DNA of 64,000 nucleotides from positions 1 through 64,000 of the IMG/VR virus record IMGVR_UViG_3300020050_015145. One strand, 5' to 3'. The translations under genes and the position numbers were made by a program. Under the pieces are notes generated by a model. It did not search any database, was not told the origin of the DNA, and was given only the letters and a program-made list of their open reading frames with translations. Below are positions 19,187-53,374 of the stretch, piece after piece. This stretch comes from a virus. Lineage: Duplodnaviria; Caudoviricetes. Numbering within the stretch: the stretch's first letter is position 1; each line of letters starts with the position of its first letter.

Positions 19187-20038
19187 ATGCCTTACTTAAA
19201 TGAAAGTGAAATGCTTAGAAAAATCAAATTGCGCCGCTTCCTGCGTGAATTCGCGGGAGGAAACCAGAAGAAATTCGCGGACCTTACCGGTCTTCAACAA
19301 TCGCAGGTAAGCCAACTCGTGGGCGACCGCAGGGAGGTGACCGATAAAATGTGGATTAAAATACTTGGAAGCCTGAATGTACCCGACACAGCTCTGCCCG
19401 AAGATTACGATATGCTTCAGCAGGAGTTGGAGGTGAGCAAAAAAAGCGTTCACCAGGGAAGGCAACTGGAAGAGTACATGCGCAAACACAACATAAAGAA
19501 CATTGACGTTGCCAAAATACTGGGTGTAAGCCCCCCGATGGTAAGCATATACAAATCTTCCGAGCAGTTTCGCCCCGATGTAGCTGAAAAAATTAACAAA
19601 TTCCTGACTGTCAACGAAGACCCGGTGCTGTACGGAGCGTCTTCCGGTACACCCGACTCGCTGCCCTTGATTTCCGACAGCGTTCGCAACCTCACAGACT
19701 TATCCAAATGCCCGCGTTATGAAATTGTCCAAAAAACCGAGTATGACCTCAAAGACGCGGTTGTTATCAAGGTAGATACTGATTTTATGGAGCCCGTTTT
19801 TAAAAAAGACTCCGAATTGCTGGCCATTGCCGTGCCGTCTGCCAAATACAAATACCATACAGGTTTGACCGCCATCCACTACGCCGACATGGTAGCCATT
19901 GGTGAAGTAATGTCCAATGATTTGCTGGACAAAGGATTTATTACGCTTCAGCGGGGAAAAGGTGCCGTACTTCGCGTTTTGGGAGAGGATATTCAGCATT
20001 TGTGGCATATTGCACTGGGCCTTAACGTGAAGTTTTAA
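19187..20038 (+). CDS. CI-like repressor with two XRE HTH domains and an S24-like C-terminal domain
   Basis: NQKKFADLTGLQQSQVSQL and KNIDVAKILGVSPPMVS HTHs; VIKVDTDFMEP motif. Confidence 0.85.
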   Translation: MPYLNESEMLRKIKLRRFLREFAGGNQKKFADLTGLQQSQVSQLVGDRREVTDKMWIKILGSLNVPDTALPEDYDMLQQELEVSKKSVHQGRQLEEYMRKHNIKNIDVAKILGVSPPMVSIYKSSEQFRPDVAEKINKFLTVNEDPVLYGASSGTPDSLPLISDSVRNLTDLSKCPRYEIVQKTEYDLKDAVVIKVDTDFMEPVFKKDSELLAIAVPSAKYKYHTGLTAIHYADMVAIGEVMSNDLLDKGFITLQRGKGAVLRVLGEDIQHLWHIALGLNVKF

Positions 20039-21270
20039 TGGTTACCTTTCGTGTTGAACTTGCTTCGGCCCCGAATCGGGACGGGCAGTTTCCGGTACGT
20101 TTGCGCATTACCGCCGACCGCCGACACAAACGTATCAGCTTGGGCTTCGCCATTGCAAAAAAAGACCTGAACCCCAAAGCTACCTTGGATAAGGCGAATT
20201 GGATACGCGCCGGCCATCCGCAGCAATTGGCCTATAACAATCGAATTCGGGAAAAATGTGAGGCAATTATCAATGCGGTTTCTGAGTTATCCAAAGAGAC
20301 CGAACCTACCCTTGAAGCAGTGGAGCACGCATTGCTCAATGGCAACGACCAGTCTTTCATTGCTTATTACCGAAAGCAACTGGAGTATGTGGGCATAAAG
20401 AATTCGCTGGAAACGGCGGAAAACTACGGCGTACCGCTGAATAAAATCATCAAGCAGTTGCAGGAGAAAGGGAAAAGCGATTTAACCTTTCGGGAACTTA
20501 CCCTGGCGTGGCTGAAAAGCTTTGAGACTTACATGATTCAAATCCCCAATTCAAAAAACACGGTAAGCAAACAATTGGGGTTTGTCAAGACCATCGTCGG
20601 TGCGGCAATAAAAGACAAGCTGCTGAGTCCTCTTAACAACCCGTTTCAGGATTATAAATTTTCTTTTGAAGAAACGGAGCGCGAAAAACTAAGCCCGGAA
20701 GAAGTTAAGCAATTGGAGGATATGCCGCTGGACCCAACCTACCGCGTTTGTCACGCCCGCGACATTTTTCTTTTTATGTATTACACCCACGGGATGCGCA
20801 TTGGTGATGCGTTGTTTTTAAGGGTCAGCAACATTCACAAAGAGCCCGAGGCGTGGCGTTGCAGATACCAAATGCACAAAACCGACTCGCGGCGTAATGT
20901 GAAGCTCACGGAAAAAGCCCGTTTGATCGTGGAGAAATACGCCGAAAACAAAGGCCCGAATGACTTTTTATTTCCTTTTGTGGAGCTGGGGAAAAACTAC
21001 AACGACGAAAGAACTTACAAAGATACAAAATCAGCCAAGACATCCATCGTAAACAAGGGACTTGGCAAAATAAAGGAAAGGCTGGGCTGGGAGAAGAATT
21101 TGACCTGCCACATTGCCCGTCATACCTTTGCCGATGCGGCCCGGGTAAAAGGTGCCAATACCTATACCATTTCCAAAGCGCTGGGTCACGCCCGATTGTC
21201 CACCACCGAAAAATACCTGAAATCCTTTGACCAAAATGCAGTGGATGAAATTAACGATATATTTGAGTAG
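20038..21270 (+). CDS. int: Tyrosine integrase (arm-binding, SAM-like and catalytic domains)
   Basis: GMRIGD, HIARHTFA and LGHARLSTTEKY catalytic motifs. Confidence 0.95.
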   Translation: MVTFRVELASAPNRDGQFPVRLRITADRRHKRISLGFAIAKKDLNPKATLDKANWIRAGHPQQLAYNNRIREKCEAIINAVSELSKETEPTLEAVEHALLNGNDQSFIAYYRKQLEYVGIKNSLETAENYGVPLNKIIKQLQEKGKSDLTFRELTLAWLKSFETYMIQIPNSKNTVSKQLGFVKTIVGAAIKDKLLSPLNNPFQDYKFSFEETEREKLSPEEVKQLEDMPLDPTYRVCHARDIFLFMYYTHGMRIGDALFLRVSNIHKEPEAWRCRYQMHKTDSRRNVKLTEKARLIVEKYAENKGPNDFLFPFVELGKNYNDERTYKDTKSAKTSIVNKGLGKIKERLGWEKNLTCHIARHTFADAARVKGANTYTISKALGHARLSTTEKYLKSFDQNAVDEINDIFE

Positions 21271-21486
21271 TGAAACATGAGTGAAACAATTACGCAACAC
21301 AGTGAAACATTGAGCGTTTCAGGTTTTTCGTAAAAAGCATCTATACAGTTACTTTGCAACATTGAGTGTTTCGGATAGTATCAAAGTTCGAGAACCTCTC
21401 TCTCTGCTTATTACAATCAAAACCCCGTGTAAATCAGGTATTTACACGGGGTTTTTGCTTTAATGGTGTAACAAAAGTGAAACAAT
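21271..21486. other. Putative attP: TGAAACA arm repeats, tRNA-Ser-like core and hairpin
   Basis: TGAAACA at 21271, 21282, 21303 and 21479; GTTCGAGAACCTCTCTCTCTGC at 21386-21407. Confidence 0.65.
21419..21456. terminator. Bidirectional hairpin AAAACCCCGTGTAAAT-caggt-ATTTACACGGGGTTTT
   Basis: Perfect 16-bp inverted repeat between convergent genes. Confidence 0.8.
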
Positions 21487-22133
21487 TACTTTTTCTGCGC
21501 TTCTTTTTTTCGTTCCGCATCGGGCAACAGCACTTCTTTTACAAACTTTTGCGAATGGGCCGCATAGGCCATATCCATCCTGCTTGCTTTAGCGCCTAAT
21601 AAAGCATGGAGTATGATTCGGGTGGACTCGTCGCCCTCAACTTTTGCCATTTCAATGACTTCGCGTAATTTTTGTTCAATGCTCATTTTGTTTGTTTGGA
21701 TTTGCTTGGTGGAAGGTTTCTTTTTGATTGACTGGGCCATTGCTCCGAAAGAAAGCAAAAACAGAATCAGGAACATTTTAGGCTGAGCCGACATTGCCAA
21801 TGAGCCGGCGCTTTTGATTCGGATTCGATAACATTTATCAATGAAGTCCAAGTCCTCCCTATCCCTTTTCCATAATGACCTTTCAAGCGCTTTTTCAATA
21901 TCAAGATCACAAAGGACACACATTTTTGCAAAGTGCAGGTAGTCCATTGGTGTTTGGCGCAACTTCTCCCTTACTTCATTGATTTGTTTTTGAGTAGCAC
22001 CTGCCTGTATCAAAATACGGGTCGGTTCGTCCATGCTTTGAACAACGGCCAGCCTTTCGTCCCTGCCGAAGGTTTGAGAATGTTGATGAAAATCAGCGAG
22101 GGCTTTTGCGATTTTTTTAATTAGCTCTTTCAT
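21486..22133 (-). CDS. Hypothetical protein(s); may be two or three genes in one frame
   Basis: Internal start MSIEQKL with A-rich upstream context. Confidence 0.55.
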   Translation of the reverse strand: MKELIKKIAKALADFHQHSQTFGRDERLAVVQSMDEPTRILIQAGATQKQINEVREKLRQTPMDYLHFAKMCVLCDLDIEKALERSLWKRDREDLDFIDKCYRIRIKSAGSLAMSAQPKMFLILFLLSFGAMAQSIKKKPSTKQIQTNKMSIEQKLREVIEMAKVEGDESTRIILHALLGAKASRMDMAYAAHSQKFVKEVLLPDAERKKEAQKK

Positions 22134-24666: not shown

Positions 24667-25107
24667 TTAGATAGGCCCCGCCCATTTCAATCGGCAATAC
24701 CAAAGCGTTGACTGCGTTCCGCTTCCCACCCCTTTGATTCTGATGTGGGTATAAGCGTAATTATCCACCTCAATGGTTTTGGACTGAAACACCCCCGATG
24801 TGGTATTGACAAAAGCCACTGTGTCCGCCGTGGGGTGCGTCGTAAAGTTTGTGCCGTCGTTTGACACTTCCACCGTAAAGGTAATGTTGGCCGTACCGGA
24901 AAGCTCTTTTCCGATAATGTGCGCCGTAACTTTTTTCCACGCTCCGCCCAGCTTCAGGGTTTGCGTGTCGGTGGTAGCGTCGGCCGTTGTGTCGCTTTTG
25001 TAGGTGTTTTGGTCGGAAATGGGAGTTCCTATTCCTGTTACGCCTGACTGAGCAAAGCTCGTAACGGCCAGCATTAAAATTGCAATAAAAGATACTATGG
25101 TTTTCAT
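24667..25107 (-). CDS. Secreted beta-rich protein with Sec signal peptide
   Basis: MKTIVSFIAILMLAVTSFA/Q. Confidence 0.75.
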   Translation of the reverse strand: MKTIVSFIAILMLAVTSFAQSGVTGIGTPISDQNTYKSDTTADATTDTQTLKLGGAWKKVTAHIIGKELSGTANITFTVEVSNDGTNFTTHPTADTVAFVNTTSGVFQSKTIEVDNYAYTHIRIKGVGSGTQSTLWYCRLKWAGPI

Positions 25108-25143
25108 TGTGTAAAAAGCGGAATACCACCGCCATGTTTTTAG

Positions 25144-25506
25144 TTAAATTTTTCTATACTTCTTCCAAACTTTGCCGCCAAACGCCCTGACAAAACCGTA
25201 CATCGTATATCGTTGCCACTTGGGAACTCCTGCCTTTTGCATCAATTCCAGCCAAATAATATCTACCTGTTTGCGTGTTAAGTTGTGCGAAGAAGGTACT
25301 TGGTACATATAATCATGCACAATACTTGGCATTGCGGCCAATCCCTGCGGAGGTATCAACCACCAGACCGCCTGCGGCACAGATGCAAAATCGGTCGTGA
25401 ATCCCGACGTAATCAGCACCGAACCGAACGCACAATCCTCCACAACCTCAAACCAGTCGTATTTTCCTGAATGTTTCACAAGGATGATGCGCGGGTAAGT
25501 GGTCAT
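25144..25506 (-). CDS. DUF1353 family protein
   Basis: GFTTDFASVP...IVHDYMY motif. Confidence 0.8.
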   Translation of the reverse strand: MTTYPRIILVKHSGKYDWFEVVEDCAFGSVLITSGFTTDFASVPQAVWWLIPPQGLAAMPSIVHDYMYQVPSSHNLTRKQVDIIWLELMQKAGVPKWQRYTMYGFVRAFGGKVWKKYRKI

Positions 25507-25928
25507 TATTCGGGATTTTCTGGTTCGGGCGTTGGTTCCGCGTAAAGCGGGTCACCGTTTTGCTCTTCGATTGGGGCAAGCCCGTAGCCGTAAATGCCCG
25601 CCAACCCTGTGGCCGCTGCGTACTTTTGCGCCTCGGTTCCAAAAATCAACCCCTGCACAATTTGCCCGATTTGAACTTCCGCTTGCTCCTGCGTAGCGCC
25701 CAATCCAATCGCCTTTTCGACAAATTCAGAAGTCAACGCATTTAGCCCGCCAAACTTCGTTCCTGTATCCAGAAGAAATTCAACAAAGAATCCGAATTCA
25801 ATATTGGGCAAAAGCGATATAACAATATTGGTATTGATACGCGCCGCAATCCCTACTACCGTGCGCGTAATGTTGGCTTGGTCGGTGAATGTCCGTGTTG
25901 GATTCACCTTGAAAAAGTAATTTTCCAT
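25506..25928 (-). CDS. Hypothetical protein
   Basis: 140 aa ORF coupled to neighbours. Confidence 0.7.
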   Translation of the reverse strand: MENYFFKVNPTRTFTDQANITRTVVGIAARINTNIVISLLPNIEFGFFVEFLLDTGTKFGGLNALTSEFVEKAIGLGATQEQAEVQIGQIVQGLIFGTEAQKYAAATGLAGIYGYGLAPIEEQNGDPLYAEPTPEPENPE

Positions 25929-25930
25929 AA

Positions 25931-26434
25931 CTATATTGTTTTAAGTTGAAAGTGCATTCCGTCCTCATTCTTTCCTTTCCAGTATCCGCCCCAATCGAAG
26001 CCGGCATCCGTGAAGCATTTTACAAATCCCTCCGAAAGCGTTGACTTTCCCCCAAAAGGATTCCATGCGGCATTCACATCAATAGCCACCGCCCAACTGT
26101 GAAGGCTCCAAGAATCTTTGCCGCGTTTGTAGCGGATGTTAAAACACCCATCCCACGTTTTCAATTCATCCGCATGACCCCTTGCAATCAGGTTCCGAAA
26201 AGCTTTTTCCAAAGGAGCTGTCAAAATTCGATTACAGTACAGACGGTTTGGCAAGGCGGGTATGGCATCGTTTATGCTCGTTGGAATATCCCACAGTACA
26301 AGCAGGGAGCCTTCCCACGCGACAGACGCGACAGGAAGCCCCCATTTTTTGATACATTGATTACTTGTCAGCATCTTTTTTGCCTCTTGTTTTACCTCCG
26401 CCCATTTTCCCAAGTACCGCGTCGGTTCCTGCAT
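25931..26434 (-). CDS. Endolysin, M15 family peptidase
   Basis: GCFNIR, SLHSWAVAIDVN, WGGYW and DGMHFQL motifs. Confidence 0.9.
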   Translation of the reverse strand: MQEPTRYLGKWAEVKQEAKKMLTSNQCIKKWGLPVASVAWEGSLLVLWDIPTSINDAIPALPNRLYCNRILTAPLEKAFRNLIARGHADELKTWDGCFNIRYKRGKDSWSLHSWAVAIDVNAAWNPFGGKSTLSEGFVKCFTDAGFDWGGYWKGKNEDGMHFQLKTI

Positions 26435-26807
26435 TGGCTACATCGTCCGCACGCCGTTCAAGTGTCTTGAAAAAACGCGTAACGATTTTCAGAATCAGAA
26501 CACCCGTGCAGCCTATCAGAAAATACACCGCATTCACATCCCACTTGGGCAATACCAATTCATGTACCGTGGAAGACAAAGCCAGCGAACACGAAAAGCC
26601 GATTCCCACCTTTATCCAAAATTCGGAGGTTGAAAGCGTCGTTGATAGCTTTGCACCTGCTGCGCTGCCGGCACCTGCTGCCAACGCTTTGATGGCGAAT
26701 GCAGTTGCGGCACTTCCTAAGAAGCCCAAAATCGTTGCCAGTACTGGCACACCTGCAAGGATGCTCAATATGCCGTACAGCGCGTATATTGTCAGTTCCA
26801 TAAGCAT
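26361..26807 (-). CDS. Putative holin
   Basis: Multiple TM segments, basic C-terminus, immediately upstream of the endolysin. Confidence 0.7.
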   Translation of the reverse strand: MLMELTIYALYGILSILAGVPVLATILGFLGSAATAFAIKALAAGAGSAAGAKLSTTLSTSEFWIKVGIGFSCSLALSSTVHELVLPKWDVNAVYFLIGCTGVLILKIVTRFFKTLERRADDVANAGTDAVLGKMGGGKTRGKKDADK

Positions 26808-26874
26808 ACTCGTATTTTTAGTGGGGTTGTTGGTTGCTAATTGTGCTTGTGTTTTCATATCAGTAGGGTATAAT

Positions 26875-27231
26875 TTACTTTATAGTGACAATCAAAACAC
26901 CCACCCCAACGCCTCCCAAAGCCGACAAAACGGGCCGCAAAATCTTGTATTTCCGTATTCGCCAAATCACTTTCCGCTCATTCCAAACTTCAAGATTCAG
27001 CACTTTCAACAAACGCGCCTGTTGGTTGGCGTTCAGCGTTTTGATATTGGTCAAGGCTCGCTTCAAAAGGTTCGATTCGGCAAGCAAATCAGGATAATCA
27101 TTCAGAATCTTAATGGTTGAATCAATCTCAATTTGACTTCCGCACAGACAATTTGAATCCGTTTTTTTTGTTAGCTGACTCCAGCTTTTTGTTGCGCACA
27201 GAATCAGACTTAAAAGGAATAGGCACAGCAT
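26875..27231 (-). CDS. Spanin-like component (signal peptide plus C-terminal TM)
   Basis: MLCLFLLSLILCATKSWS/Q; C-terminal ILRPVLSALGGVGVGVLIVTIK; overlaps the lipoprotein gene. Confidence 0.5.
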   Translation of the reverse strand: MLCLFLLSLILCATKSWSQLTKKTDSNCLCGSQIEIDSTIKILNDYPDLLAESNLLKRALTNIKTLNANQQARLLKVLNLEVWNERKVIWRIRKYKILRPVLSALGGVGVGVLIVTIK

Positions 27232-27391
27232 TAGCACTTGCCCGCTTGGTTTCGATAACTTCAATTTTGATTTCATCTTCCTTAATTTGCTCTTTTAAGT
27301 CCAAACCTCCGCAACTCTTCACCGCCAAAATCACCATGCAAATCATGGCCACGAATACGATTAGCGCAACTGAGAACCTGAACGCTTTCAT
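27128..27391 (-). CDS. Spanin-like lipoprotein or membrane protein
   Basis: Hydrophobic N-terminus ending AVKSC; located in the lysis cluster. Confidence 0.5.
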   Translation of the reverse strand: MKAFRFSVALIVFVAMICMVILAVKSCGGLDLKEQIKEDEIKIEVIETKRASANAVPIPFKSDSVRNKKLESANKKNGFKLSVRKSN

Positions 27392-27495
27392 AGCCTCTCC
27401 TTCACCTTTTTCTTCGTGGCAGCACTTGCTTTTTTGTACAGTCAACATCCCCCTGTGGACGAATCGGCATCGTTAGGGATATGCTTGGCTACATG

Positions 27496-27966
27496 TCACG
27501 CTGTGGGCATATACCCCTCATAGTCAGGTATTAAGTTTTGCGGCACAAAATAGGTGAAACGAACCATGCGACGCTTAGTAACAGGATTGAAGAAATAGTC
27601 CTGCGGATGCGCTTGATGTATCTCGCAGATTGTCACCCAATCACCCAGCCCTTTGTTAAGAACTGCCACGCCCTGCTTTGCCTTTTCTTCGTCGATATAG
27701 ACACACAGGCGCAAAACAGGGATATTATAGTTTTTGTCGGGCTGACCCGTCCATGCGTTATTGCGCTCCATTTTGGACACATTCTCAGCAATCAACGCAT
27801 CGTCGTGAGGAATGCGAAGTCTAACGAAAGCAGTTTTCATGTTCTCAAAAGCAGAACCACGTAAGGCGTCAACGACTGAAACATATACAGGTTGTACTTT
27901 GGCTTTCTTTTGCGCCTGCGCCGCTACTACCAACAGCGCTAAGCAGAGTATAAATAAGTTTTTCAT
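27496..27966 (-). CDS. Hypothetical secreted protein
   Basis: MKNLFILCLALLVVAAQA/Q signal peptide. Confidence 0.75.
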   Translation of the reverse strand: MKNLFILCLALLVVAAQAQKKAKVQPVYVSVVDALRGSAFENMKTAFVRLRIPHDDALIAENVSKMERNNAWTGQPDKNYNIPVLRLCVYIDEEKAKQGVAVLNKGLGDWVTICEIHQAHPQDYFFNPVTKRRMVRFTYFVPQNLIPDYEGYMPTA

Positions 27967-28003
27967 CTTCCTCGATTTGTTTTTACAATCCAACTGCAAC
28001 TTT

Positions 28004-28837
28004 TTATTGTGGCAGCGGGTATCTAATAATAACTATTCCGGAGGCGCCACCCATGCCGGGTGGGGTACTGGAATGGCCGCCACTTCCTGTATTTGCGGCT
28101 GGCGGTGTGCCGGTGTATGTGAATACCGGCGCGGGCGTGACATGTGCTCCATTGCCACCAATCGAATAGGTTACCGATGCGCCCGAAATTGAGTAGCTGC
28201 GCCCCGCCCCGCCCATACCCCGAGCGGCGTTTGTTCCCGCCGTTCCCGCCCCGCCGGCCCCGCCGCCGCCGCCGGAAGATTGATTGGTAGAAAGCACTCC
28301 GTCGCCGCCATTGAAGCCATAACCGGTTGCTCCGCCATTGGAGGTTTGAGAGGCCGCTCCAGCCGAAGATCCGCTGAAGCCCGCCTTACCACCACCGGAC
28401 CCGCCACCGCCGCCGCCAACACTGCCATCGGACCCGCCGCCGCCACCGCCAAAAGCTGTGATGTTGTCGAAAACGGAATTCCCTCCCGTTCCTCCTTTGC
28501 TACCGGAGATACCAATTGCACCACCCACCCCTACTGTGACGGTGTATGTTCCCTGTGTAACAATTCTCCCTGTTTGATAGGCAAGCCCGCCGGCCCCGCC
28601 GGCCCCGCCGGAATAGCCATACCCACTTGCTCCTCCCCCGGCAACTACCAGCACGTCAATTGTGTCAACCACGTTAAAAACTGCTGTTCCCGAGGTGGTG
28701 AAGGTGTGAATTCTGTACCCTCCAATGTCGGTCACAACCCCGCCATCGACCGGCGAAGCCATGATGTAGGGGTTGATTATCGTTTGCCCTGTCGTCTGAA
28801 TTGCGGCCAGCAACAGGAATATCAATAGCTTTTTCAT
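28004..28837 (-). CDS. Glycine-rich tail fibre-type protein with signal peptide
   Basis: YRIHTFTTSG, DVLVVAGGG, GGNSVF and SGIVIIRYP glycine-rich domain; MKKLLIFLLLAAIQTTG/Q. Confidence 0.8.
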   Translation of the reverse strand: MKKLLIFLLLAAIQTTGQTIINPYIMASPVDGGVVTDIGGYRIHTFTTSGTAVFNVVDTIDVLVVAGGGASGYGYSGGAGGAGGLAYQTGRIVTQGTYTVTVGVGGAIGISGSKGGTGGNSVFDNITAFGGGGGGSDGSVGGGGGGSGGGKAGFSGSSAGAASQTSNGGATGYGFNGGDGVLSTNQSSGGGGGAGGAGTAGTNAARGMGGAGRSYSISGASVTYSIGGNGAHVTPAPVFTYTGTPPAANTGSGGHSSTPPGMGGASGIVIIRYPLPQ

Positions 28838-29913
28838 TAGTTCATGTATCCGTTTATGGTCACCTTGCCTCCCTTTGCCGTTCCGTTTCCGACTTGATCG
28901 ACATCGATGGTTATTTTTGCCCATTTTGCCCATGAGGTATCCGATATGACCGGGGCGGTCGCTGCTGTGTTACTGCCTTCCTCTGTATTATCCACAGTTA
29001 ATTTTGTAGACAGGACGGTAGTGCCGGCTTTGTTAATATCGACCGTGAAAAGCGACCCCGACACCTGGGGGGTCGACAGCCCCAAATGCATCTCTGTTAC
29101 CGTCATGCTGTAAGGCATGTAGAAAGTCACCTTTGAGGTGCCGGCGGTAATGAATGAGGTTTCGTCCGAAAAGGAGACAACAATAGAAGCAGGTGTATTG
29201 ATAGTCAGGGTACCGGCACTACCCGAATTACCCATTGTTGCATAAGGTCCTACTATATTAAGAGAAGTAATCTCTCCTGAACTTCCGACATTAGAACCTT
29301 CTTCCCTGTATTGTATATTTGCCTGTTTTGCGTTCAGCGCCGTTTGGGTCGCGGTTGAAACAGGTTTGTTGGCGTCGGAAGTGTTATTGGTAGCATCCAC
29401 CCCTAATAGGATTCTCGCCTGCGAAACGGTTAAATCCTGCACCGCCGCTGAACTTCCTGTATTATTGCCTTTCAGCGAATTGGCCGCAGCATTGGCGAGT
29501 TTTGCGTTAGTAATCGCATTGTCCGCTACGGTCGTTGCCAAAACCGGCTCACGCTTATACCTGCGACCGTTGGCCGCAACAATGCAATCCGTTCCGTCAT
29601 CTGCCGTAGCGCTGCCTGATATGTACCGAAACCAACCTTCTTTCCCTGAATCGGTGATGTAGATTAATTCGTAATTGGTGTTATTGATAAGCCGCGTATT
29701 GGCAATTGTCTTGGTGTAATACTTCTTTTTGAGCGTGTCAACATGGTCAATCACATCATTAAAAGTCTCACGAAGCTTAACCGCCTGAATGGACTTATTA
29801 TTGGTCGAAGGGAAATACGTATTGATTTCGCCCCTGATAGCAGGAATAGGCTGCTGTCCGAAAGACGAAACGGCCAGCGAAAGCGCCAAAAGCGCCAGTG
29901 TTATTTTTTTCAT
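28837..29913 (-). CDS. Tail fibre/tailspike-type protein with signal peptide
   Basis: NNTSDANKPVSTATQTALNAK fibre repeat; GWFRY..SATADDG..GRRYKR tailspike-like N-domain; MKKITLALLALSLAVSSFG/Q. Confidence 0.8.
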   Translation of the reverse strand: MKKITLALLALSLAVSSFGQQPIPAIRGEINTYFPSTNNKSIQAVKLRETFNDVIDHVDTLKKKYYTKTIANTRLINNTNYELIYITDSGKEGWFRYISGSATADDGTDCIVAANGRRYKREPVLATTVADNAITNAKLANAAANSLKGNNTGSSAAVQDLTVSQARILLGVDATNNTSDANKPVSTATQTALNAKQANIQYREEGSNVGSSGEITSLNIVGPYATMGNSGSAGTLTINTPASIVVSFSDETSFITAGTSKVTFYMPYSMTVTEMHLGLSTPQVSGSLFTVDINKAGTTVLSTKLTVDNTEEGSNTAATAPVISDTSWAKWAKITIDVDQVGNGTAKGGKVTINGYMN

Positions 29914-32189
29914 AATTTCGCTATAAACAGTCTATTGCCTTCTGTTTTTCCTGAATACATCTTCCCTTCGATTTCAACTTCAAATTCAGTCCAGCGTCCG
30001 GGTCGCGACCAAACATCCTGCACTAACAGCACTTTTTGCCCGTTATTTTCACACACCAAAGCAAACGGCTGGCGCTTTTGTAGTGCATCTATGTACCAGC
30101 TTCCGTTTGTGATTTCGTCTACCGTGACAGCCGACAAAACGGAGCCATCTTTTGTTGCTCTTTTGTAGGTAAATTTGGGAGCCCTGCGGCTTCCGTCCAT
30201 GGCATCCTGAATGAGCGAATAGGTATAGGCGGCCTTAATGGTTGCATTGATGGCCATCGCCTCTTTGCCGATATAAAACTTATCCCCCTGCGGAGCGCGC
30301 CCCTGTTCAAATGTCCAGACTGAAAAACCGCCCGCCTCGGTATAGGCATTGTTGTATTGTGCTGTGCCGGAAGGGTTCCAGCCCACGGGTCCGGGACACC
30401 AATAGAATAGGTATTTTGAGGTCAACAACCCCAATGTCATGTTATCTTCCCACTGCGTAGGCGGGTACATGGGCTTATTGTCGGTACGTCGTGCTCTTGC
30501 ATTATGTTCAGGGATTTCTACGACGTGGTTGGGAGGAAAAGACACAAATTCGGTTTCCTGAAACGGCCACGAGAAGTACACCTGATCTTTGTCCGGCCAC
30601 GATCTGCGCCACAATTCGGAGGCGTCCAGTGATTTTAGGTAGGTAAGTTGAGGGCTGATGTTGCGCCCGTTGCCGTCGTTTTCAGAAAGATTGTTGTCGT
30701 AACTTACATAGCCATACCCTGTATTTATTACCGAATAAGGATTATACTTTTTCTGCAAGTCGTTCAGTCTGCTATATGCTTCTTCGTACTTTGCAATGTC
30801 TTTATTCTGCTGGCCGTAGTTTGTGTGAGGGGTAAGCTGAACACCGTCAAGCATCAAGTTGTTTGGCGAATTTGAAGGAATGTCCATCCAATTGTAAGCC
30901 ATTGCCCCGCGCTGTTTCAATCGCTCGATTACGTAACCCATATTTCGGGTGAAGTTTGGAGCGGCATAATCTACAATCCACGTTTCGGAGGCGTGAGGCT
31001 CAATGTCAAAAGCAACAATCTGTTCGATTGGCAATCCGTTGGCAAAATCAATGCACTCCTGTTCGGTCAGGTCGTGAAAGCCTTTGCGACTTGGTAAACT
31101 AAGTAAATAACTGCTTAGCGAATGGGCATAGAGCTTTAGGTGCCTTTTGCCTTTTTGCCAGTTAAACTGTATGCCGAGTTGTTTTTTGCGCTCGTCGGTT
31201 TCATCCAAAAATTCGTACTCGAAGCCGTAAGAGCGATTTTTAAGCGAAAAAGCAGGGAGTTTTGAAAAGGCAGACGGACGGCCGATTGGATTCGGGGAGT
31301 CCCCTGCCGGGTTCCAAGTCTCCGATTTTGGAACGACGTAGAAAAACAATTCAGAGCGCCGAAACTCGGCCTTTGGATTATCGTACATCGCCCTCCATAC
31401 CTCGCGAATACTTGATTGTGAAATAGAGTATTTGGAAACGTGGTAGAGTCGATAGGGTAAAATGGGCTCATTTTCCAACTTGCCGCAATTTTCCAAATCC
31501 GTCCATCCGTTTAGGGTATAAGAGGCCGACTGCAAGCTATTGCCTATATCCGAAAGAAGTAACTGTCCGTTTAGTTGCGAAATTCGTAGGTCTAAGTGCT
31601 CATCGGGACGGCTTTCGATGTAGCGCAACTCGTATTCGCCCGCCAGCTCTGCTGAGGGCAGAAATGGGTCTTTGAGGGCAAAAAGATTGTGCCCTCCTGT
31701 GTGTCTATCTGAATTTGGCAAAAGTGCTGCATTCGACACGTCGAAAGCTCTTTTTCCTTTTGCCGGATCGGAATTGCAATTAGTTGCCCTAATTTGCAGT
31801 TCATAAGCTCCGGCCGTCAGCTTTTGTTGAATAGAAACCTGCGAGGAAGTAAGCTGTCCTGTATTGCCGCCGCTCACAAACGCGCCCGATTGCGTAAGTG
31901 TCCAATCTATCGACCGTACATCTACCGCCTGAAAGGAAAATTCAATACGACCGTCACTGTACTTTGCAGTAAGCAGGTCTAACCCTGTCTTGCAATCAAG
32001 TTTTGAGACTACAACGGGCGCATGAGGATTTAGCCTGCTTTCGATGTATTCGCGTACCCATTGGCGGGTAGCAACAGTGTCTTTGTTTTCGGTTTTCGGG
32101 TTTTTGGGTTTGGACAGTTTTTGTCCAAAACTTTGCCCAATGCCTAAAAGCATCGTCGTTAGCAGGAGAAGAAGTTTGAGGTTTTTCAT
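29910..32189 (-). CDS. Large secreted protein, possibly a glycan-acting enzyme
   Basis: MKNLKLLLLLTTMLLGIGQSFG/Q; aromatic-rich C-terminal region; function not established. Confidence 0.7.
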   Translation of the reverse strand: MKNLKLLLLLTTMLLGIGQSFGQKLSKPKNPKTENKDTVATRQWVREYIESRLNPHAPVVVSKLDCKTGLDLLTAKYSDGRIEFSFQAVDVRSIDWTLTQSGAFVSGGNTGQLTSSQVSIQQKLTAGAYELQIRATNCNSDPAKGKRAFDVSNAALLPNSDRHTGGHNLFALKDPFLPSAELAGEYELRYIESRPDEHLDLRISQLNGQLLLSDIGNSLQSASYTLNGWTDLENCGKLENEPILPYRLYHVSKYSISQSSIREVWRAMYDNPKAEFRRSELFFYVVPKSETWNPAGDSPNPIGRPSAFSKLPAFSLKNRSYGFEYEFLDETDERKKQLGIQFNWQKGKRHLKLYAHSLSSYLLSLPSRKGFHDLTEQECIDFANGLPIEQIVAFDIEPHASETWIVDYAAPNFTRNMGYVIERLKQRGAMAYNWMDIPSNSPNNLMLDGVQLTPHTNYGQQNKDIAKYEEAYSRLNDLQKKYNPYSVINTGYGYVSYDNNLSENDGNGRNISPQLTYLKSLDASELWRRSWPDKDQVYFSWPFQETEFVSFPPNHVVEIPEHNARARRTDNKPMYPPTQWEDNMTLGLLTSKYLFYWCPGPVGWNPSGTAQYNNAYTEAGGFSVWTFEQGRAPQGDKFYIGKEAMAINATIKAAYTYSLIQDAMDGSRRAPKFTYKRATKDGSVLSAVTVDEITNGSWYIDALQKRQPFALVCENNGQKVLLVQDVWSRPGRWTEFEVEIEGKMYSGKTEGNRLFIAKL

Positions 32190-32244
32190 AAAAGAGTGTA
32201 TTGTCACAGACAGCACTCGAAAGCGCTGTCTGTGAAATGAATTA

Positions 32245-33480
32245 TTAAGCCGGAGTGGTTAATTCAAAACCGAAGATGCCGGTTACATCTTTTAAGATGT
32301 TTCCGCTCACGCTCGTAAAGAAGCCTGTAGGACGCTTGTAAAGTCCATAAAGCAATGAAGGCGTTACGTCAAGTGTTGGATATGCCTTGGTTGAAACCGC
32401 CATTTGAGCGCGGAAATCCACGTCCAATTCAAAGAAGTCGCCGCCTAAACCTGCAATGGAGCTGTCCAAAGCGGATTGCTCTACGCGGAAGCTGAGGCTT
32501 CCGTAAGAGTGGTCAAACCAGTTGCCGCTGTTAACAAAGCCATTTTCTCCGTGCTCAGGGCAAGGGCAGAATGCCGCTGCCGCCGTATCGAAGGCAATGA
32601 TTTTGTTCTCACCGTAGATGGTATCCACAGCAGGGTCAAAGTACCACAACACAGGCAGTTTTGCGTAGGCTTCTGCCAAGTTTACACCTGCGTTGTTGAC
32701 GGCCATAATCCCCTGTTTGGCCATGTACTTGCTCAAGCGCTGTCCACCCACCACGATCAAACGACCTTTCAATGAGTTCAAAAGCATCGTTTGCTGGAAG
32801 GCCTCCAATAGGTTTTCGGTTGCTTTTCCCGCAGAGTCAAATACCTCAACAGGCACACAGGGAGCCGCAGCGGTTGGAGTTACTTCATCCGGATACGCGG
32901 CATTTTTACCGATACCGGCCACCATCGAAGTGGTCAGTACGGAGTCAACGGGCTTTAACAAGGTTTCGTCCACCGTGCGGTAAATGTCCATACCGATGTC
33001 AAGCATCTTATCGCCGTATTTTGCGCCGTCAACACCGCCGTAGGGTTTTACCTTACCGTCAATCAAGCCGTTGATATACTTGAAGTAGCCAGGCTCCTTC
33101 ATTACGTCCGAGATAGCCCATTGAATACCCCACTCCCGACGCAGGTTGAAATCAACCGTTAAGTTGGTAGCGCCCTGAATAGCCGTTCCCGATGTTTTGG
33201 TACGGGTATTGCGACCCGTGCCGGCATAAGCGGGCTTAAAGTTGGTCGTTACGCTAAAATAAGGAAGCTCGGTTTCCGTGTCGAACTTCTTGGTTGTGCG
33301 GTTATCGCGCCCGCCGCCCGCAAAGGCTTTGACCGGGTCGATTTCGTTGATGATCTGGCGAAGCTCAGGAGCGCGGAGCGCCTTGAGCATACCTAAGTGA
33401 GAGAATTTGTACTCGTTGCCGGGTACGTGACCAACGGCCGCATACGTGATGCGACCGCCACTCAAATTAATGTCATTCAT
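32245..33480 (-). CDS. Major capsid protein (putative)
   Basis: 411 aa, follows scaffold, minor capsid and portal genes; strongly biased codon usage. Confidence 0.7.
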   Translation of the reverse strand: MNDINLSGGRITYAAVGHVPGNEYKFSHLGMLKALRAPELRQIINEIDPVKAFAGGGRDNRTTKKFDTETELPYFSVTTNFKPAYAGTGRNTRTKTSGTAIQGATNLTVDFNLRREWGIQWAISDVMKEPGYFKYINGLIDGKVKPYGGVDGAKYGDKMLDIGMDIYRTVDETLLKPVDSVLTTSMVAGIGKNAAYPDEVTPTAAAPCVPVEVFDSAGKATENLLEAFQQTMLLNSLKGRLIVVGGQRLSKYMAKQGIMAVNNAGVNLAEAYAKLPVLWYFDPAVDTIYGENKIIAFDTAAAAFCPCPEHGENGFVNSGNWFDHSYGSLSFRVEQSALDSSIAGLGGDFFELDVDFRAQMAVSTKAYPTLDVTPSLLYGLYKRPTGFFTSVSGNILKDVTGIFGFELTTPA

Positions 33481-45606: not shown

Positions 45607-45902
45607 TTTCTTTTGACGGGTTTGTCAATGGATTCTCCCATTTGGTTTTCAAATTCCATTTCAACCATATCCCGCACCTCCAAAATGCGCTCAATCTGCC
45701 CGGAGCGTACACTTTCGGGCTGATGCAGATACAAAGTGATGGTGTGCAAAGCGTTGAATACTCTGACGGACTGGGCTTTGGTCAATGTAATGTGCCCGCG
45801 TTTGCGCTTGGCCATGCCCAGTATTTGACGAAGCATGTTGTGATTGGCGCGGCCTATTTCTTCCTGCGTACGTTGTTTGGTTGGTTTGACAGGTGGCATC
45901 AT
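45603..45902 (-). CDS. Hypothetical protein
   Basis: 99 aa with ATGA overlaps on both sides. Confidence 0.65.
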   Translation of the reverse strand: MMPPVKPTKQRTQEEIGRANHNMLRQILGMAKRKRGHITLTKAQSVRVFNALHTITLYLHQPESVRSGQIERILEVRDMVEMEFENQMGESIDKPVKRK

Positions 45903-48900
45903 CTGTTATAGAGGTTTTCGTAATAGGCTACGTGCTGTTGATTATGACTTATTTCCGCAATACTCACGCGGTTGGCGTCAACGTTAATTTTAAGTTCCGG
46001 TTTGGAGCGAATCACCTCCGTTAAATTCTTTACCTCTTTTTCCAATCCCTTCAAATCCACCGATGTGCCCAATCTGTCTCCCTCTAAGTTGAAATTCATT
46101 CGCCCAAACTCCTCAATTCTCAAACTGCCGAATTTCTTCTGCAATTCCTCAAAGGCTAAATACCCGTCCACTAACTTTTCGTTGGGCAACTCTTTACCCA
46201 GCTTTTCGTTGAGCGTTCTTTTTACTATCCGCTCTCCCTTGTCAACCATCGCCGGCACCGTATCCCTTCCGTCCGGATAACCCAATCCATCCACCCAAGG
46301 CGTTCCTTCAAAGTAGCTTTTGCCCGTAGCTGACACGTAACCCGTAGCATTTCTGATGGTGAAGGAATTCCCCGCTGCGTCATAAGCCGTAAATTGCCTG
46401 TCTTCGTCAGTGTATGTCAGGGTCATTGCGTTTTTGTTCTGGTCAAATGCCTCATTGACCGCCTCCAGATTATCTGCCCGGAACGGTGTTCTGTTGGCTT
46501 TGCGCTGGGCAATCAGGCCTTCCTTTATGTTACTGGTCCATGTGTCAGGAACGGTCACAATGCCACCGCTGCCTTCACCCATCAACGCCTCCAAATCCCT
46601 GATAGAGCCTTGCAAATCTCCCACCGCTGCGTCAATTTTGCCCCGGTTGAAGATATTCCGCTTTCCTTGCAGCATGGCAATTTCGGCGCGTATTTGCGCA
46701 ATAGCCATCTGGATTTGCGACTGCATAATTTGCTTATTGGCCTGTAAAACAAAGTTGGCATAGTCTCTTTCCGCTGCCGCTTTTTGGGTGGAGGCATCCT
46801 GTTTTTTGGCAGTCACTTCATCTTCGAGTCCTTTGACGGTTATTGCCAATTGACTTTGAAGCTGGGTTATTGTAGCTTTCAGTGCCGTTTCTCGTGCCAC
46901 ATAGTCGTTTTTCAGCGCTTCCAATTTAGCGTCGCGCTCATCCGCCATCTCCTTGAACTTATCCTGATAGGATTGCTCCAAAGCATTTACCGCTTCTTTT
47001 TCTTCTTCCTTCAGCTTTACCGCCCCGTCTTTGGCTTCTTGGTTCAATTGCTTGGTTGCCAGACTAACCCCTTTGGATTTGTCCAACTTGGCATCCTCGA
47101 CCTCTTTGTGAACGTCGGCAATTCTTTGGGCGTAGGCATTGGTGACTTCTTCGCGCTCTTTTTCGTCCGTCAGCGTGGCTAAGATGCGGTCGCGGGTTGC
47201 GGCTAAACGATTGGTTTCGTCGGTTCGGTAACGTTCCAATGCCTCATTGCGAAGGCGGTCAATAATAGTAATCGTTTCATTTTCGTCGGCCTTGGACTGC
47301 TCAAGTAACTGTTGCCTGTAGTCGTACGTGGCCTGTAACGATGCCTTCTCTTGGCTTTCTTTCTCTTTTAATGCCGCCAATTGTTGGTCGTAGGCTTCTT
47401 TGACGGCGTTGGTTTGTTGCTCGTACGTATCTTTGGCCGTGTCCAATTGTGATTTCAGGGCATCAACCTGCGTATCGGTGAAATCTTCAAGCCTTTTGAT
47501 TTCTTCCTCTTTGGCCTCAATGTAGGCGTCCAACTCATCTTCAATGGCCTGAATTTTCCTATCCCGCACTTCCTGTGCCGTTTCAATTTCCCGTTGAAGC
47601 TTTTTGATGCGGTATTCTTCTTCAAGCGCCTGTTGCTCGTACATACCTGCGACGATTTCCCCCATCTGCTTTTTAGCGGAGGCGGTCATGTCCTTTTTCA
47701 TCTTGGAGTCATTCTCCAGTGTAAGTTTGGTATAAGCAGCTTGGTATTCAATCAGTTCTTTGGCTTCGGCGTACTCGGTTTGTTTGGCGTAGTGCTCATC
47801 AATGATTCGTTCTCGCTCGGCGTACGAGCCTTTGAAGTCTTCGAGTTGAGCGTCCAGCGAATCGGCATTAACCCGAATAAGTGTGTCATAATAATCACCC
47901 ATGACATTTGCCAAGGTGTCGTAGGCTTCAATGATAGCCGTATTGGTTTCTACCAACATATCGTTGATAGCCGCCGCAACTTTCTGCATTATATCAGCCA
48001 CCATCATGGCCATATTGAGGGATGCCATAGATGCCGCACCCTCAGCTTCGACCAGATTTTGCTTTGACTCCGCTACTTTTAGCGAAGATTCGGCATATTG
48101 TGTTGAGTGTTCGCCATACAGGATTTTAATGGTGCTGCTGTAGGCCTGCGCATTCTTTACCTGATTTTCGTAGGTCGTAACGGTTTTGCCGCTAATCAAA
48201 TCGATGTCATCCACCATTTTGATGGCAAAATTGGAAAAGTCGCTCAACGCGCTGTTTAATGATCCCACAAACCCCAATACCGCCTTTAATCGCTCATTGT
48301 GCGATTTAACTTCAATCTCCGCCGTTTTTTCAGTAACCTTTTGCTCTTCTTCGTTGATTTTGCGAATCGCCTCCAACGTATCCAACTTGGCCTGTTGTTT
48401 TTCTTTTTCGGTTTGTTGGGTGTTCAAAAGCCGCTGCACCTCCGAAGCCTGCACGGATAGCGACAAATCGGTTTCAATCTCAACTGACTGCCTGACAAAT
48501 TCGATTTGCCCCGCCGTAATATTTACTTGGCTTTCTTTAATAAGGGCTTCCTTTGCGCGATTGGCTTTGATAATAATAGCTTCAATAGCTAAGACTGCGT
48601 CCTCCTCTGTTTTAACATATTCAACTTTATGCGCATTAACCTTTGCAATCTCCTCCTTCATGCCACGGTCAATTATCTCCAATTTATCACTTAGGCTTTT
48701 TTCTTCTGCCTCTTTGATTAATATGGCAATCTCATTGGAGGAGAAAAACGCCTGCTCTTTAAGCTGCTTGTGCTTATCGGCATCCTTGCCGACTGCCATT
48801 GCATTGTATTGATCCTTGGCTTTGAGCATATTTGTCTCATGCTCAAAATAAGCACTGGCGTACTGTGACGTACCTTCAGTCAACGTGCCTTTTATCTTGG

Positions 48901-51114: not shown

Positions 51115-51299
51115 ACCGCACCTCCTTTCCGATACGTTGCCCGTTGGCGTTCAATGGTCAGTGTTCGGTTTATTTCTCTGAGCATTCGCTGCAAATCTTC
51201 GTAGGGGATTTTGTTCCATTGTACCGTGAGACTTTCGTTGGTTGCTTCCAATACCACTTCATCGCCTTGCGATACAGTGATTTTTAATGTGTCGCTCAT
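51108..51299 (-). CDS. Hypothetical protein
   Basis: 63 aa, coupled to the antirepressor gene. Confidence 0.6.
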   Translation of the reverse strand: MSDTLKITVSQGDEVVLEATNESLTVQWNKIPYEDLQRMLREINRTLTIERQRATYRKGGAVC

Positions 51300-52081
51300 G
51301 CCTGTATCTGAAGATTGGATTGGAGATTTGATTGTGTCAGCTTTTTAGCCTTAGCGGGTTTGCCGTACGAAAGCGACTCATTAAACAAATAATGAAGAAA
51401 AGCCCGACCGCGCTCGGTCCAAACCATGTACATACTCGTGTGTTGTATTCCCTTGCTATCGGTATAGGAATTGGTACGGGTAGCGGTATAACCTTCGTTT
51501 TCGTAGTTGGCATACAAAACATACCGCCCGTCGTGCCAGTACTGGATTTTCTTTTTGCAAAGCTCGGCATTGAGTTTGCGGGCAGGAATCCCCAATTCTT
51601 TGGCAATGTTGGTCGTGGTGTAATTGGCGTCGCTTTGCAGTACTTTGTCGGTCCATTCGGCTTTGGGCGCCAATTTATTGATCTGCTCATCTTTTTCGGC
51701 AAGCAGACGATTGGCAAGCAGTACGGCACTTGAAAGGATTTCTTCGTTGGTTTGGGGACGTTGGATATTTTGGCGAAGTCGGTTTTCACATTCGATGAAA
51801 TATTGCCGCGCCTGTTTGCCCTTTTCGGAGCGTTGTAGCATGGCAATTTCCTTGGCGGTATTCAAGGTGAGGGCGTAGTCTATCGTTTCTTGCTGATTTT
51901 GGGGGTGTACAAAAAAGTACGGGGTATAGTCTTCGTTTTCTTTAAAACCATACTCGAACATTCTGTCTATCCAAAGTCGAAACGGCGTTTTAACTTCAAG
52001 GAACTCGTACAATTCCCTTGCGGATACTACTTGCCCTTCCCCACCTTGCGGATTTGGGCTTACTTTGATTAATTCTTGCAT
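51296..52081 (-). CDS. Phage antirepressor (AntA/AntB plus KilAC domains)
   Basis: VSARELYEFLEV, AKEIAMLQRSEKGKQARQYFIECE, LAPKAEW, VWTERGRAF. Confidence 0.9.
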   Translation of the reverse strand: MQELIKVSPNPQGGEGQVVSARELYEFLEVKTPFRLWIDRMFEYGFKENEDYTPYFFVHPQNQQETIDYALTLNTAKEIAMLQRSEKGKQARQYFIECENRLRQNIQRPQTNEEILSSAVLLANRLLAEKDEQINKLAPKAEWTDKVLQSDANYTTTNIAKELGIPARKLNAELCKKKIQYWHDGRYVLYANYENEGYTATRTNSYTDSKGIQHTSMYMVWTERGRAFLHYLFNESLSYGKPAKAKKLTQSNLQSNLQIQA

Positions 52082-53119: not shown

Positions 53120-53374
53120 ATGAAAAGCCTACTGATTTCTACTTTTTTAATACTTCTTTTCGCTTCCTGCAAAAAAGAAGCCGAGCCCCAAAAGTGCTAC
53201 GCCTGCACCCAAACTATCAATAAGTTTGAAGGATCAAAAGTGACCGTCACAAAAGTGGAAAAAGAAATGTGTACCGTCATTTCCAGAAACTTCTTTGAAG
53301 AAAACTTCACTTTTTCCAGAGATTACGGACTGTACAAAGAGGTGAGTTTGGCAAGTTGTACTTTGAAGCCATAA
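53120..53374 (+). CDS. Lipoprotein (moron)
   Basis: Lipobox LFASC followed by KKE; CxxC motif. Confidence 0.8.
   Translation: MKSLLISTFLILLFASCKKEAEPQKCYACTQTINKFEGSKVTVTKVEKEMCTVISRNFFEENFTFSRDYGLYKEVSLASCTLKP

Follow-up and report, generated by a model that had tools for sequence, protein, structure and literature searches.

In the present work, we examine a block of five genes in a 64,000-nucleotide stretch of DNA, hereafter the window, which comprises positions 1-64000 of the 72,207-bp IMG/VR virus record IMGVR_UViG_3300020050_015145 (a tailed phage of the Caudoviricetes). Given its 121-bp terminal repeat, the record is a complete genome. The five genes lie between the putative major capsid gene and the end of the late operon. 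Our main finding is that their products, among them a glycoside-hydrolase-like protein and a protein of tail-fibre type, are very probably exported through the Sec pathway of the host. For the overall mechanism that we propose, namely export, periplasmic processing, release at lysis and docking on the tail tip, the chances appear to be about even.

The five genes, with the start position and the predicted cleavage site of each leader, are:

29910..32189, minus strand: 759-aa predicted exported enzyme; leader from start 32189 with cleavage SFG/QK (cut after residue 22), K/P-rich linker, DTVATRQWVREY helix, FN3 domain (Cys66/Cys138), beta-sandwich, (beta/alpha)8 barrel, C-terminal beta-sandwich
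28837..29913, minus strand: 358-aa predicted exported fibre-type protein; leader from start 29913 with cleavage SFG/QQ, N-terminal module (residues 20-121), repeat unit, C-terminal jelly-roll tip
28004..28837, minus strand: 277-aa predicted exported glycine-rich protein; leader from start 28837 with cleavage TTG/QT, Gly_rich_2 domain
27496..27966, minus strand: 156-aa predicted exported protein; leader from start 27966 with cleavage AQA/QK
24667..25107, minus strand: 146-aa predicted exported jelly-roll protein; leader from start 25107 with cleavage SFA/QS; last gene of the late operon

Export leaders

The assignment of the leaders is based on reading of the sequence, a pattern test and conservation. 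As read from the translations, all five leaders have an n-region rich in Lys, a hydrophobic core of 10-14 residues without charges, and small residues at positions -3 and -1. The residue at +1 is Gln in all five proteins, and the same is found in almost all homologues. Longer forms of the proteins, starting from GTG 32216, ATG 28933 or TTG 27999, are unlikely, because the homologues begin at the same Met.

For the pattern test, a strict regular expression describing a leader followed by Gln was applied to every open reading frame (ORF) of at least 60 aa with an ATG start in all six frames of the 72,207-bp genome, and 20 codon-shuffled genomes served as the control. The genome gives 6 matches, compared to a mean of 0.05 in the shuffled ones. 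Five of the six are the genes of the block, located within 7.5 kb, and the sixth is an internal Met at 21794. No such leader is present on the putative capsid, portal, tape-measure, terminase or tail-tip proteins. An earlier note on this DNA had claimed that these same five genes start with leaders for Sec and signal peptidase I (SPI) that are followed by Gln, and that the capsid, portal and tape-measure proteins have none; both statements are borne out, the former by the translations, the pattern test and the conservation described below.

The sixth match is a side observation in its own right. Its leader (GAMA/QS) begins at the internal Met 21794 of a 215-aa ORF (21486-22133, minus strand) beside an attP-like site. 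If the start of this ORF has been mis-called, the Met could be the beginning of a separate 102-aa exported protein, in a position typical for a moron.

We now consider the conservation. For the 759-aa enzyme, nearly all of 37 homologues (50-96% identical) have a leader of differing sequence and the same build, and the exceptions look like mis-called starts. The 358-aa fibre-type protein has leader-bearing counterparts in all 24 close homologues, and also in more distant ones that possess its N-terminal module. The more than 70 proteins that have only its central repeat or its tip in common with it, from Proteobacteria, cyanophages and others, all lack a leader; many of them are DUF2793 proteins, from Pseudomonas and other non-Bacteroidota. 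When residues 1-125 of the fibre were compared with 1.8 billion representatives, eight diverged clusters with the segment IRxEIN...PxN...I.A..R were obtained. The segment stands directly behind an intact leader in six of the eight, while the remaining two (P0288 and P0289) have a hydrophobic start without a charged n-region, and their starts are probably mis-called.

Of the 120 relatives listed for the Gly_rich_2 protein, 105 are without any hydrophobic start and 15 have one; relatives that resemble Bacteroidota leaders are P0159, P0195, P0206 and P0227. Counterparts with leaders exist for this protein in L005 and L016, which are metagenomic relatives of the phage, and for the 146-aa protein in L005, L006 and L016. 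In L005, L006 and L015, small leader-bearing proteins adjoin the fibre gene.

The cysteines of the enzyme family give a hint that is independent of the leaders. Every sequence that has the FN3 domain also has its Cys66 and Cys138, and a second pair occurs with both of its cysteines in exactly the same nine sequences and is absent from all others. Cysteines that are gained and lost pairwise are a hallmark of disulfide bonds, and such bonds form outside the cytoplasm. The co-varying pairs in the FN3 domain suggest, on this ground, a folding outside the cytoplasm. From the leaders and these pairs we infer that the five proteins are cleaved and fold in the periplasm.

As judged from its genes, the phage is a temperate, long-tailed siphophage of the freshwater bacterium Runella (Cytophagales, Bacteroidota). 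The host was assigned because all six matches of the enzyme in bacterial genomes, searched with one genome per species, are from Runella, and because a related prophage (L012), with head genes that are 59-61% identical, is present in a complete Runella chromosome. Since Runella belongs to the Bacteroidota, the Q-rule of the Bacteroidetes applies, in which Gln follows the site of SPI cleavage (Bochtler et al. 2018, PMC5837995; PMC10653852).

None of the five proteins has a C-terminal sorting domain of the type IX secretion system (T9SS; NCBIfam and Pfam, E <=0.01), and none has a lipobox, the residue at +1 being Gln and not Cys. Their expected location before lysis is for this reason the periplasm. 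Glycosylation of the exported proteins was another idea that was considered and abandoned: O-glycosylation sequons D-[ST]-[AILVMT] are at their expected frequency, with 5 compared to 4.8 expected in the five mature proteins and 20 compared to 20.2 in 14 other proteins.

The predicted exported proteins and their modular build

The largest protein of the block has no family in Pfam, PHROGs or NCBIfam. Its AlphaFold2 (AF2) model has a mean predicted local distance difference test score (pLDDT) of 86. With VIA-align, the barrel and C-terminal sandwich of the model find their best matches in glycoside hydrolases (GH) over ca 300 residues, with Z-scores of 9.5 for GH42 (5e9a_B), 8.8 for GH164 (6t6g) and 8.2 for GH39 (5jvk), and Foldseek returns GH66, GH2, GH13 and GH31, all at low TM. 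Two Glu residues are invariant, E397 (DIEP) and E545 (FQETEF), and both are located just after a beta-strand in the model. In retaining enzymes of clan GH-A, the two catalytic Glu follow strands 4 and 7. We describe the protein as glycoside-hydrolase-like on the basis of the model, without placing it in a family, as the Z-scores are middling. The fibre or tailspike label that the earlier note had applied to the exported proteins has thus to be given up for the largest of them, which is a predicted enzyme and not a fibre.

The FN3 domain of the enzyme matches the central fibres T5 pb4 and lambda J with Z 8.5-8.8. Against BFVD, only weak multi-domain matches were obtained (tip attachment protein J, and putative cellulases of Erwinia and Pseudomonas phages). 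There is no protein match to the enzyme in cultured phages, and no relatives of either the enzyme or the fibre were found in IMG/VR.

The 358-aa protein contains one copy of the NTSDANKPVSTATQTAL unit. It matches PHROG tail-fibre families at 1e-7 to 1e-8, and there are also minor-tail matches, while the DUF5907-type repeat (E 0.0033) stays below the Pfam cut-off. The tip (residues 243-356) finds by tblastn annotated tail-fibre or virion proteins of Xanthomonas, Synechococcus, Rhodobacteraceae and Sphingomonas phages, with E 1e-9 to 2e-20. Its best structural match is the tail-fibre tip of Agrobacterium phage 7-7-1 (9rkv_M), with Z 9.2, a root-mean-square deviation of 2.5 and 103 aligned residues, which is about 1.4 above the next row. 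The AF2 monomer is poor before residue 220 (mean pLDDT 60). No relatives of the fibre were found in GTDB genomes, and neither the fibre profile nor the 785-aa tail protein produced a usable match in PDB sequence searches.

The 277-aa protein matches Gly_rich_2 (PF21722) with E 9e-20 and 72 bits, the cut-off being 24.3, and phrog_2295 with E 4e-36. The earlier note had seen clear virion-fibre sequence in two of the proteins. This is supported by the repeat and the PHROG matches of the 358-aa protein and by the Gly_rich_2 score of the 277-aa one. The 'tailspike-like N-domain' of the same note is only loosely right: the fibre segment around GKEGWF...GRRYKR is also found ahead of pectate-lyase-type bodies in other proteins, but the model of that part of the fibre is the poor one.

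Of the two small exported proteins, at least the 146-aa one is, in its model, a beta-sandwich. In the ESM Atlas it matches viral clusters at 0.95, and its structural look-alikes are Bbp16, DUF6385 and F5/F8-type-C (discoidin) domains (TM 0.57-0.65). The 156-aa protein has no family in Pfam, PHROGs or NCBIfam, and in the ESM Atlas only weak Bacteroidota look-alikes at 0.83.

The surroundings of these genes are mosaic. Four metagenomic relatives (L005, L006, L015 and L016) and one contig without DNA show the same order, with the capsid gene followed by the exported enzyme and then by exported fibre-type genes interspersed with lysis genes, and the synteny of the late genes is kept in these four relatives and in the Runella prophage L012. 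The capsid protein is 87% identical in L015 and 59% in L012. The catalytic part of the enzyme is 68-75% identical to that of L005 and L006, two relatives in which the identity of the capsid and portal proteins is no more than 27-32%, and it is still 55-62% identical in elements that have nothing else in common. Between phages with capsid proteins that are unrelated or about 30% identical, the enzyme keeps 60-75% identity. Among such otherwise unrelated elements, the gene lies beside a muramidase in a Runella slithyformis prophage with integrase (L002), ahead of spanin-like, holin and endolysin genes in L013, and with other neighbours in L003, L008 and L011.

At the same place, distal parts are exchanged. 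In L016, the slot after the capsid gene holds a leader and a DTxATxxWVR helix ahead of an unrelated 523-aa body, and in the contig without DNA it holds a 496-aa product with a weak Cellulase match, whose N-terminus was not read. The alignment of the fibre shows the N-terminal module kept and three kinds of distal parts swapped; the fibre of L015, despite the 87% identical capsid, matches only in this module (48%). A retained N-terminal module with exchangeable distal parts, as seen here for enzyme and fibre, is the classical pattern of receptor-binding proteins, and we take it as suggestive only. A strict link between the N-terminal module of the enzyme and the phage backbone was also considered, but it is ruled out by L012, a related backbone with another N-terminus, and by L013, an unrelated backbone with the same helix.

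In L012, a 1216-aa leader-bearing protein (L012:11703-15353) is encoded past the endolysin gene; at its N-terminus (IRQLINQKFPTN) stands a diverged version of the fibre N-terminal module. Two further leader-bearing proteins follow it (L012:16721-17566 listed), none of them with a Pfam match.

Proposed docking at lysis and the competing readings

In the mechanism that we propose, the host Sec translocon would export the five proteins, and SPI would cut ahead of the Gln, which would then cyclise to pyroglutamate by the Q-rule. The exported proteins would fold in the periplasm, with disulfides in the FN3 domain of the enzyme, while heads and tails would be built in the cytoplasm. The two pools would meet only once the interleaved holin, endolysin and spanin-like genes break the envelope. 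The fibre, a protein of trimeric-fibre type, and the enzyme would then dock on the tail tip via their conserved N-terminal modules, for host recognition and glycan cutting. Even before that, the enzyme may work from the inside on glycans of the envelope.

The operon in which this would take place is tightly packed and, as read from the sequence, partly translationally coupled. The enzyme stop overlaps the fibre start (ATGA), and the fibre stop overlaps the start of the Gly_rich_2 gene (TAATG). Between the fourth and the fifth exported gene are located a spanin-like pair, a holin candidate, an endolysin gene and two further genes, and an intrinsic terminator closes the operon:

27128..27448, minus strand: overlapped partner of the 133-aa protein in the spanin-like pair; homologues in L006, L012, L015 and L016 in the same overlapped arrangement
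26875..27276, minus strand: 133-aa protein, outer partner of the spanin-like pair; leader SWS/Q, conserved C-L-C-G motif, C-terminal membrane helix
26361..26858, minus strand: 165-aa membrane protein, holin candidate by position; 51-59% identical homologues directly ahead of the endolysin in L005, L015 and L016
25931..26434, minus strand: endolysin (Peptidase_M15_4, Pfam E 4.8e-12; PHROG endolysin families), no leader
25144..25928, minus strand: two leaderless genes, for a 140-aa protein and a 120-aa DUF1353 protein (Pfam E 1e-22; phrog_1158); kept in L005 and L016
24611..24640, minus strand: intrinsic terminator, 13-bp stem (6 G-C pairs) and T run, 27 bases past the stop of the 146-aa gene

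The terminator scan gives nothing comparable from the capsid gene up to this point.

A comparison for the proposed docking is offered by two cultured Cellulophaga phages. In the podovirus phi18:3 (NC_021794), gp085, gp086 and gp087 have a leader and Gln and are encoded just ahead of two membrane proteins and the endolysin. The GenBank notes annotate them as virion structural, structural and tail protein, respectively, 'based on experimental MS/MS proteomics analysis' (MS/MS, tandem mass spectrometry). The portal protein and eight other virion proteins of this phage with such support have no leader. In the siphovirus phi10:1 (NC_021802), gp091-gp094 have leaders and Gln, carry the MS/MS note and lie ahead of holin-like genes; one is annotated as pectate lyase and one as tail fibre. 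In phi10:1, too, no leader is present on the portal, capsid, tube and tape-measure proteins. Both phages thus resemble the window in having Sec leaders with Gln on a run of fibre and polysaccharide-enzyme genes ahead of membrane and endolysin genes. They differ in that there is no sequence homology, in that the host belongs to the Flavobacteriia and not the Cytophagia, and in that their proteins were detected by MS/MS in virion preparations while those of the window are known from genes alone. By analogy, this layout, which provides the only experimental evidence at hand, favours an association of the exported proteins with the particle. As far as could be found, no publication has taken up the leaders of the Cellulophaga proteins.

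Several points weigh against such a docking. The Cellulophaga proteins are not homologous to those of the window, and presence in a virion preparation is no proof of attachment. The N-terminal module of the enzyme does not strictly follow the phage backbone (L012, L013). Docking past lysis would have to compete with dilution. Moreover, the export assignment itself comes from sequence. For the step in which fibre and enzyme dock on the particle, we see the case by analogy as one that could fall either way.

The strongest competitor is a free role, in which the exported proteins would stay unattached in the periplasm and, past lysis, in the surroundings. The enzyme would cut, and the fibre-type lectins would cover, the receptor or barrier glycan, so that the infected cell and its debris would stop capturing progeny or superinfecting phages and the progeny would escape the slime layer (receptor destroying or masking). 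The export evidence itself speaks for this reading, with the compartments being separate until lysis. The catalytic body is also found as a plain leader-plus-enzyme, without fibre-like parts, in other sequences (P0029 and P0034-P0036, of which P0035 and P0036 are high-G+C), and the form seen in P0035 and P0036 is what one would expect if the enzyme were secreted to act freely. In four backbones, the enzyme gene accompanies lysis genes, which also fits a role in release, and fibre features are absent from both small proteins. Large tip proteins (785, 606 and 305 aa) are encoded in the tail module itself and could be enough for adsorption. Exported receptor blockers encoded beside tail-fibre genes are in addition an established class, with T5 Llp, T1/phi80 Cor and lambda Lom as examples; Lom is an exported phage envelope protein (PMC12309495).

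On the other hand, without T9SS domain or lipobox the proteins could not reach outer-face receptors before lysis, a kept N-terminal module ahead of swapped distal parts is what particle-attached fibres show, and the analogous Cellulophaga proteins are in virion preparations. Because of the last two points, we favour joining of the virion over the free role, which we consider possible but rather unlikely. The earlier note had proposed that receptor-binding parts mature in the periplasm and join virions at or after lysis, or act as secreted blockers or decoys. Its first half stands, in that the proteins are predicted Bacteroidota-type Sec/SPI substrates made of fibre and enzyme parts (leader conservation, Q-rule, cysteine pairs, Runella host), but between virion and decoy the sequence cannot choose.

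Another option is that the genes are lysogenic-conversion cargo (morons), expressed from the prophage for envelope remodelling or polysaccharide feeding and without a lytic role. The phage is temperate, as indicated by its integrase and the related Runella-chromosome prophage, the enzyme cassette is mobile among Runella prophages, and Q-rule proteins of Porphyromonas phages have been taken in this way by Matrishin et al. 2023 (PMC10367356). However, the genes are translationally coupled between capsid and lysis genes with one common end terminator, and the late-gene synteny is kept in L005, L006, L015, L016 and L012. A Bacteroidota-type promoter motif is also missing from 24-34 kb; the motif is uninformative, being at chance level in the window (5 matches compared to 3.9 expected), and a sigma-70 promoter scan is not informative for Bacteroidota. 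We regard this option as improbable. Finally, that the hydrophobic N-termini are uncleaved parts of cytoplasmic fibre proteins, or start-codon artefacts, is most improbable: signal-peptide predictors do give false positives on phage proteins such as capsid proteins (PMC10367356), but here the n/h/c layout, the small residues at -3 and -1 and the +1 Gln are kept while the leader sequence varies freely, the pattern is 100-fold above chance, cysteine pairs co-vary, and the homologues begin at the same Met.

It is useful to set the proposed assembly at lysis beside other known systems. To our knowledge, all characterised tail fibres are synthesised leaderless and put together in the cytoplasm. The classical fibres and tailspikes (9rkv of 7-7-1, those of Xanthomonas and Synechococcus phages, lambda J and T5 pb4) have the tip jelly-roll, repeat, FN3 domain, helix motif and N-module pattern in common with the window proteins, but they lack a leader and are assembled on the particle in the cytoplasm, whereas the window proteins carry a conserved leader. 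Sec-exported or signal-anchor-release endolysins are represented by Lys44 of Oenococcus phage fOg44 and Lyz of P1. Like the window proteins, these are late proteins that use the host Sec to arrive in the periplasm or wall ahead of lysis and are encoded in or beside the lysis cassette, but they are peptidoglycan hydrolases, while the endolysin of the window is leaderless and its exported proteins are a GH-A-like enzyme and fibre-type proteins. Llp, Cor and Lom are likewise envelope-targeted and encoded among tail-fibre genes; they are, however, small lipoproteins or outer-membrane barrels unrelated to fibres, whereas the window proteins have no lipobox and are themselves of fibre or enzyme type.

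Matrishin et al. 2023 (PMC10367356) report five genes of Porphyromonas gingivalis phages, of function not known, whose products follow the Q-rule and may alter the outer membrane of the host. They have the leader, the Gln and a Bacteroidota host in common with the window, which differs in having tail-fibre and depolymerase parts inside the late operon. The target proteins of phage diversity-generating retroelements lack signal peptides (Benler et al. 2018, PMC6199706). In the searchable literature we found no paper on leader-bearing tail fibres or depolymerases, the Porphyromonas Q-rule remark (PMC10367356) being the only exception.

Genome setting and implications

Nearly every gene of the genome is on the minus strand. 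Apart from the block and the lysis genes, the main features in transcription order, with the integrase given last, are:

Genome 63180-64982: terminase large subunit (phrog_2, E 3e-26)
Downstream of the terminase gene: small genes, then antirepressor (51296-52081)
45899-50281: tape measure
Between tape measure and portal-like gene: tail-tip proteins of 606, 785 and 305 aa
35729-37681: portal-like protein (weak phrog_7376 match, E 3e-5)
Between portal-like and putative capsid gene: scaffold-like proteins
32245-33480, minus strand: putative major capsid protein, 411 aa, by its position after the portal-like and scaffold-like genes; no family match
20038-21270: integrase, as annotated in the first reading of the window

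The order of the late genes is unusual, with terminase, small genes, antirepressor and plus-strand genes, tape measure, tail tip, portal, scaffold, capsid, exported block and lysis genes following each other. Neither Pfam nor PHROGs has a matching family for the capsid, scaffold, 785-aa and 305-aa proteins or for the 165-aa holin candidate, and a search of 24-46 kb gave no DNA match to cultured phages. By these comparisons the phage is highly divergent.

A number of smaller observations can be added. A hairpin at 32204-32233 (minus strand; 12 bp, one mismatch, no T run) is located directly past the putative capsid stop and 15 bases ahead of the enzyme gene, and may be an attenuator or an RNA-stability element that sets the ratio of capsid to downstream products. 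The outer partner of the spanin-like pair is not a lipoprotein, and homologues with the same motif are present in L012, L013, L015 and L016; a Q-rule protein instead of a lipoprotein in this place would be unusual. The DUF1353 protein (25144-25506, minus strand) is 97% identical and the endolysin 72% identical to L016 (DUF1353 at L016:12442-12810), while the capsid is only 33% identical, which points to a very recent exchange of the lysis-side module between these distant relatives. Near the antirepressor gene, on the opposite strand, an 84-aa ORF (53120-53374, plus strand) has a lipoprotein-type start (LLFASC) and is a candidate superinfection-exclusion lipoprotein. Outside the window, a transposase gene (phrog_506, E 1e-69; genome 65624-66649, minus strand; L004:5624-6649) lies inside the phage genome and adjoins the terminase gene.

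We now turn to what the leaders mean for phages of this kind. Host range is decided by tail fibres and depolymerases, and in every textbook example these are produced and attached in the cytoplasm. That such proteins here carry a conserved export signal implies either a final assembly step at lysis or fibre-derived proteins that work inside the envelope. Either outcome would change the prediction and engineering of host range for Bacteroidota phages, as well as the reading of virion proteomes and of 'structural' annotations. The question is directly testable, as cultured Cellulophaga phages with the same layout and mass-spectrometry data are at hand and a Runella slithyformis prophage carries the enzyme.

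To this question the window contributes a temperate siphophage of the Cytophagia, together with co-varying cysteine pairs as evidence that does not depend on the export signals. It also contributes a swap-slot past the capsid gene, in which differing enzyme bodies stand behind one leader-plus-helix module, and a spanin-like pair with a Q-rule, non-lipoprotein outer partner. We put forward tentatively, with somewhat less than even confidence, the wider proposal that tailed phages of the Bacteroidota follow a two-compartment assembly, in which fibres and depolymerases would be Sec-exported, pyroglutamate-capped, disulfide-bonded and docked only at lysis. If true, this would make the lysis cassette a part of the assembly pathway and overturn the rule that virions are completed in the cytoplasm.

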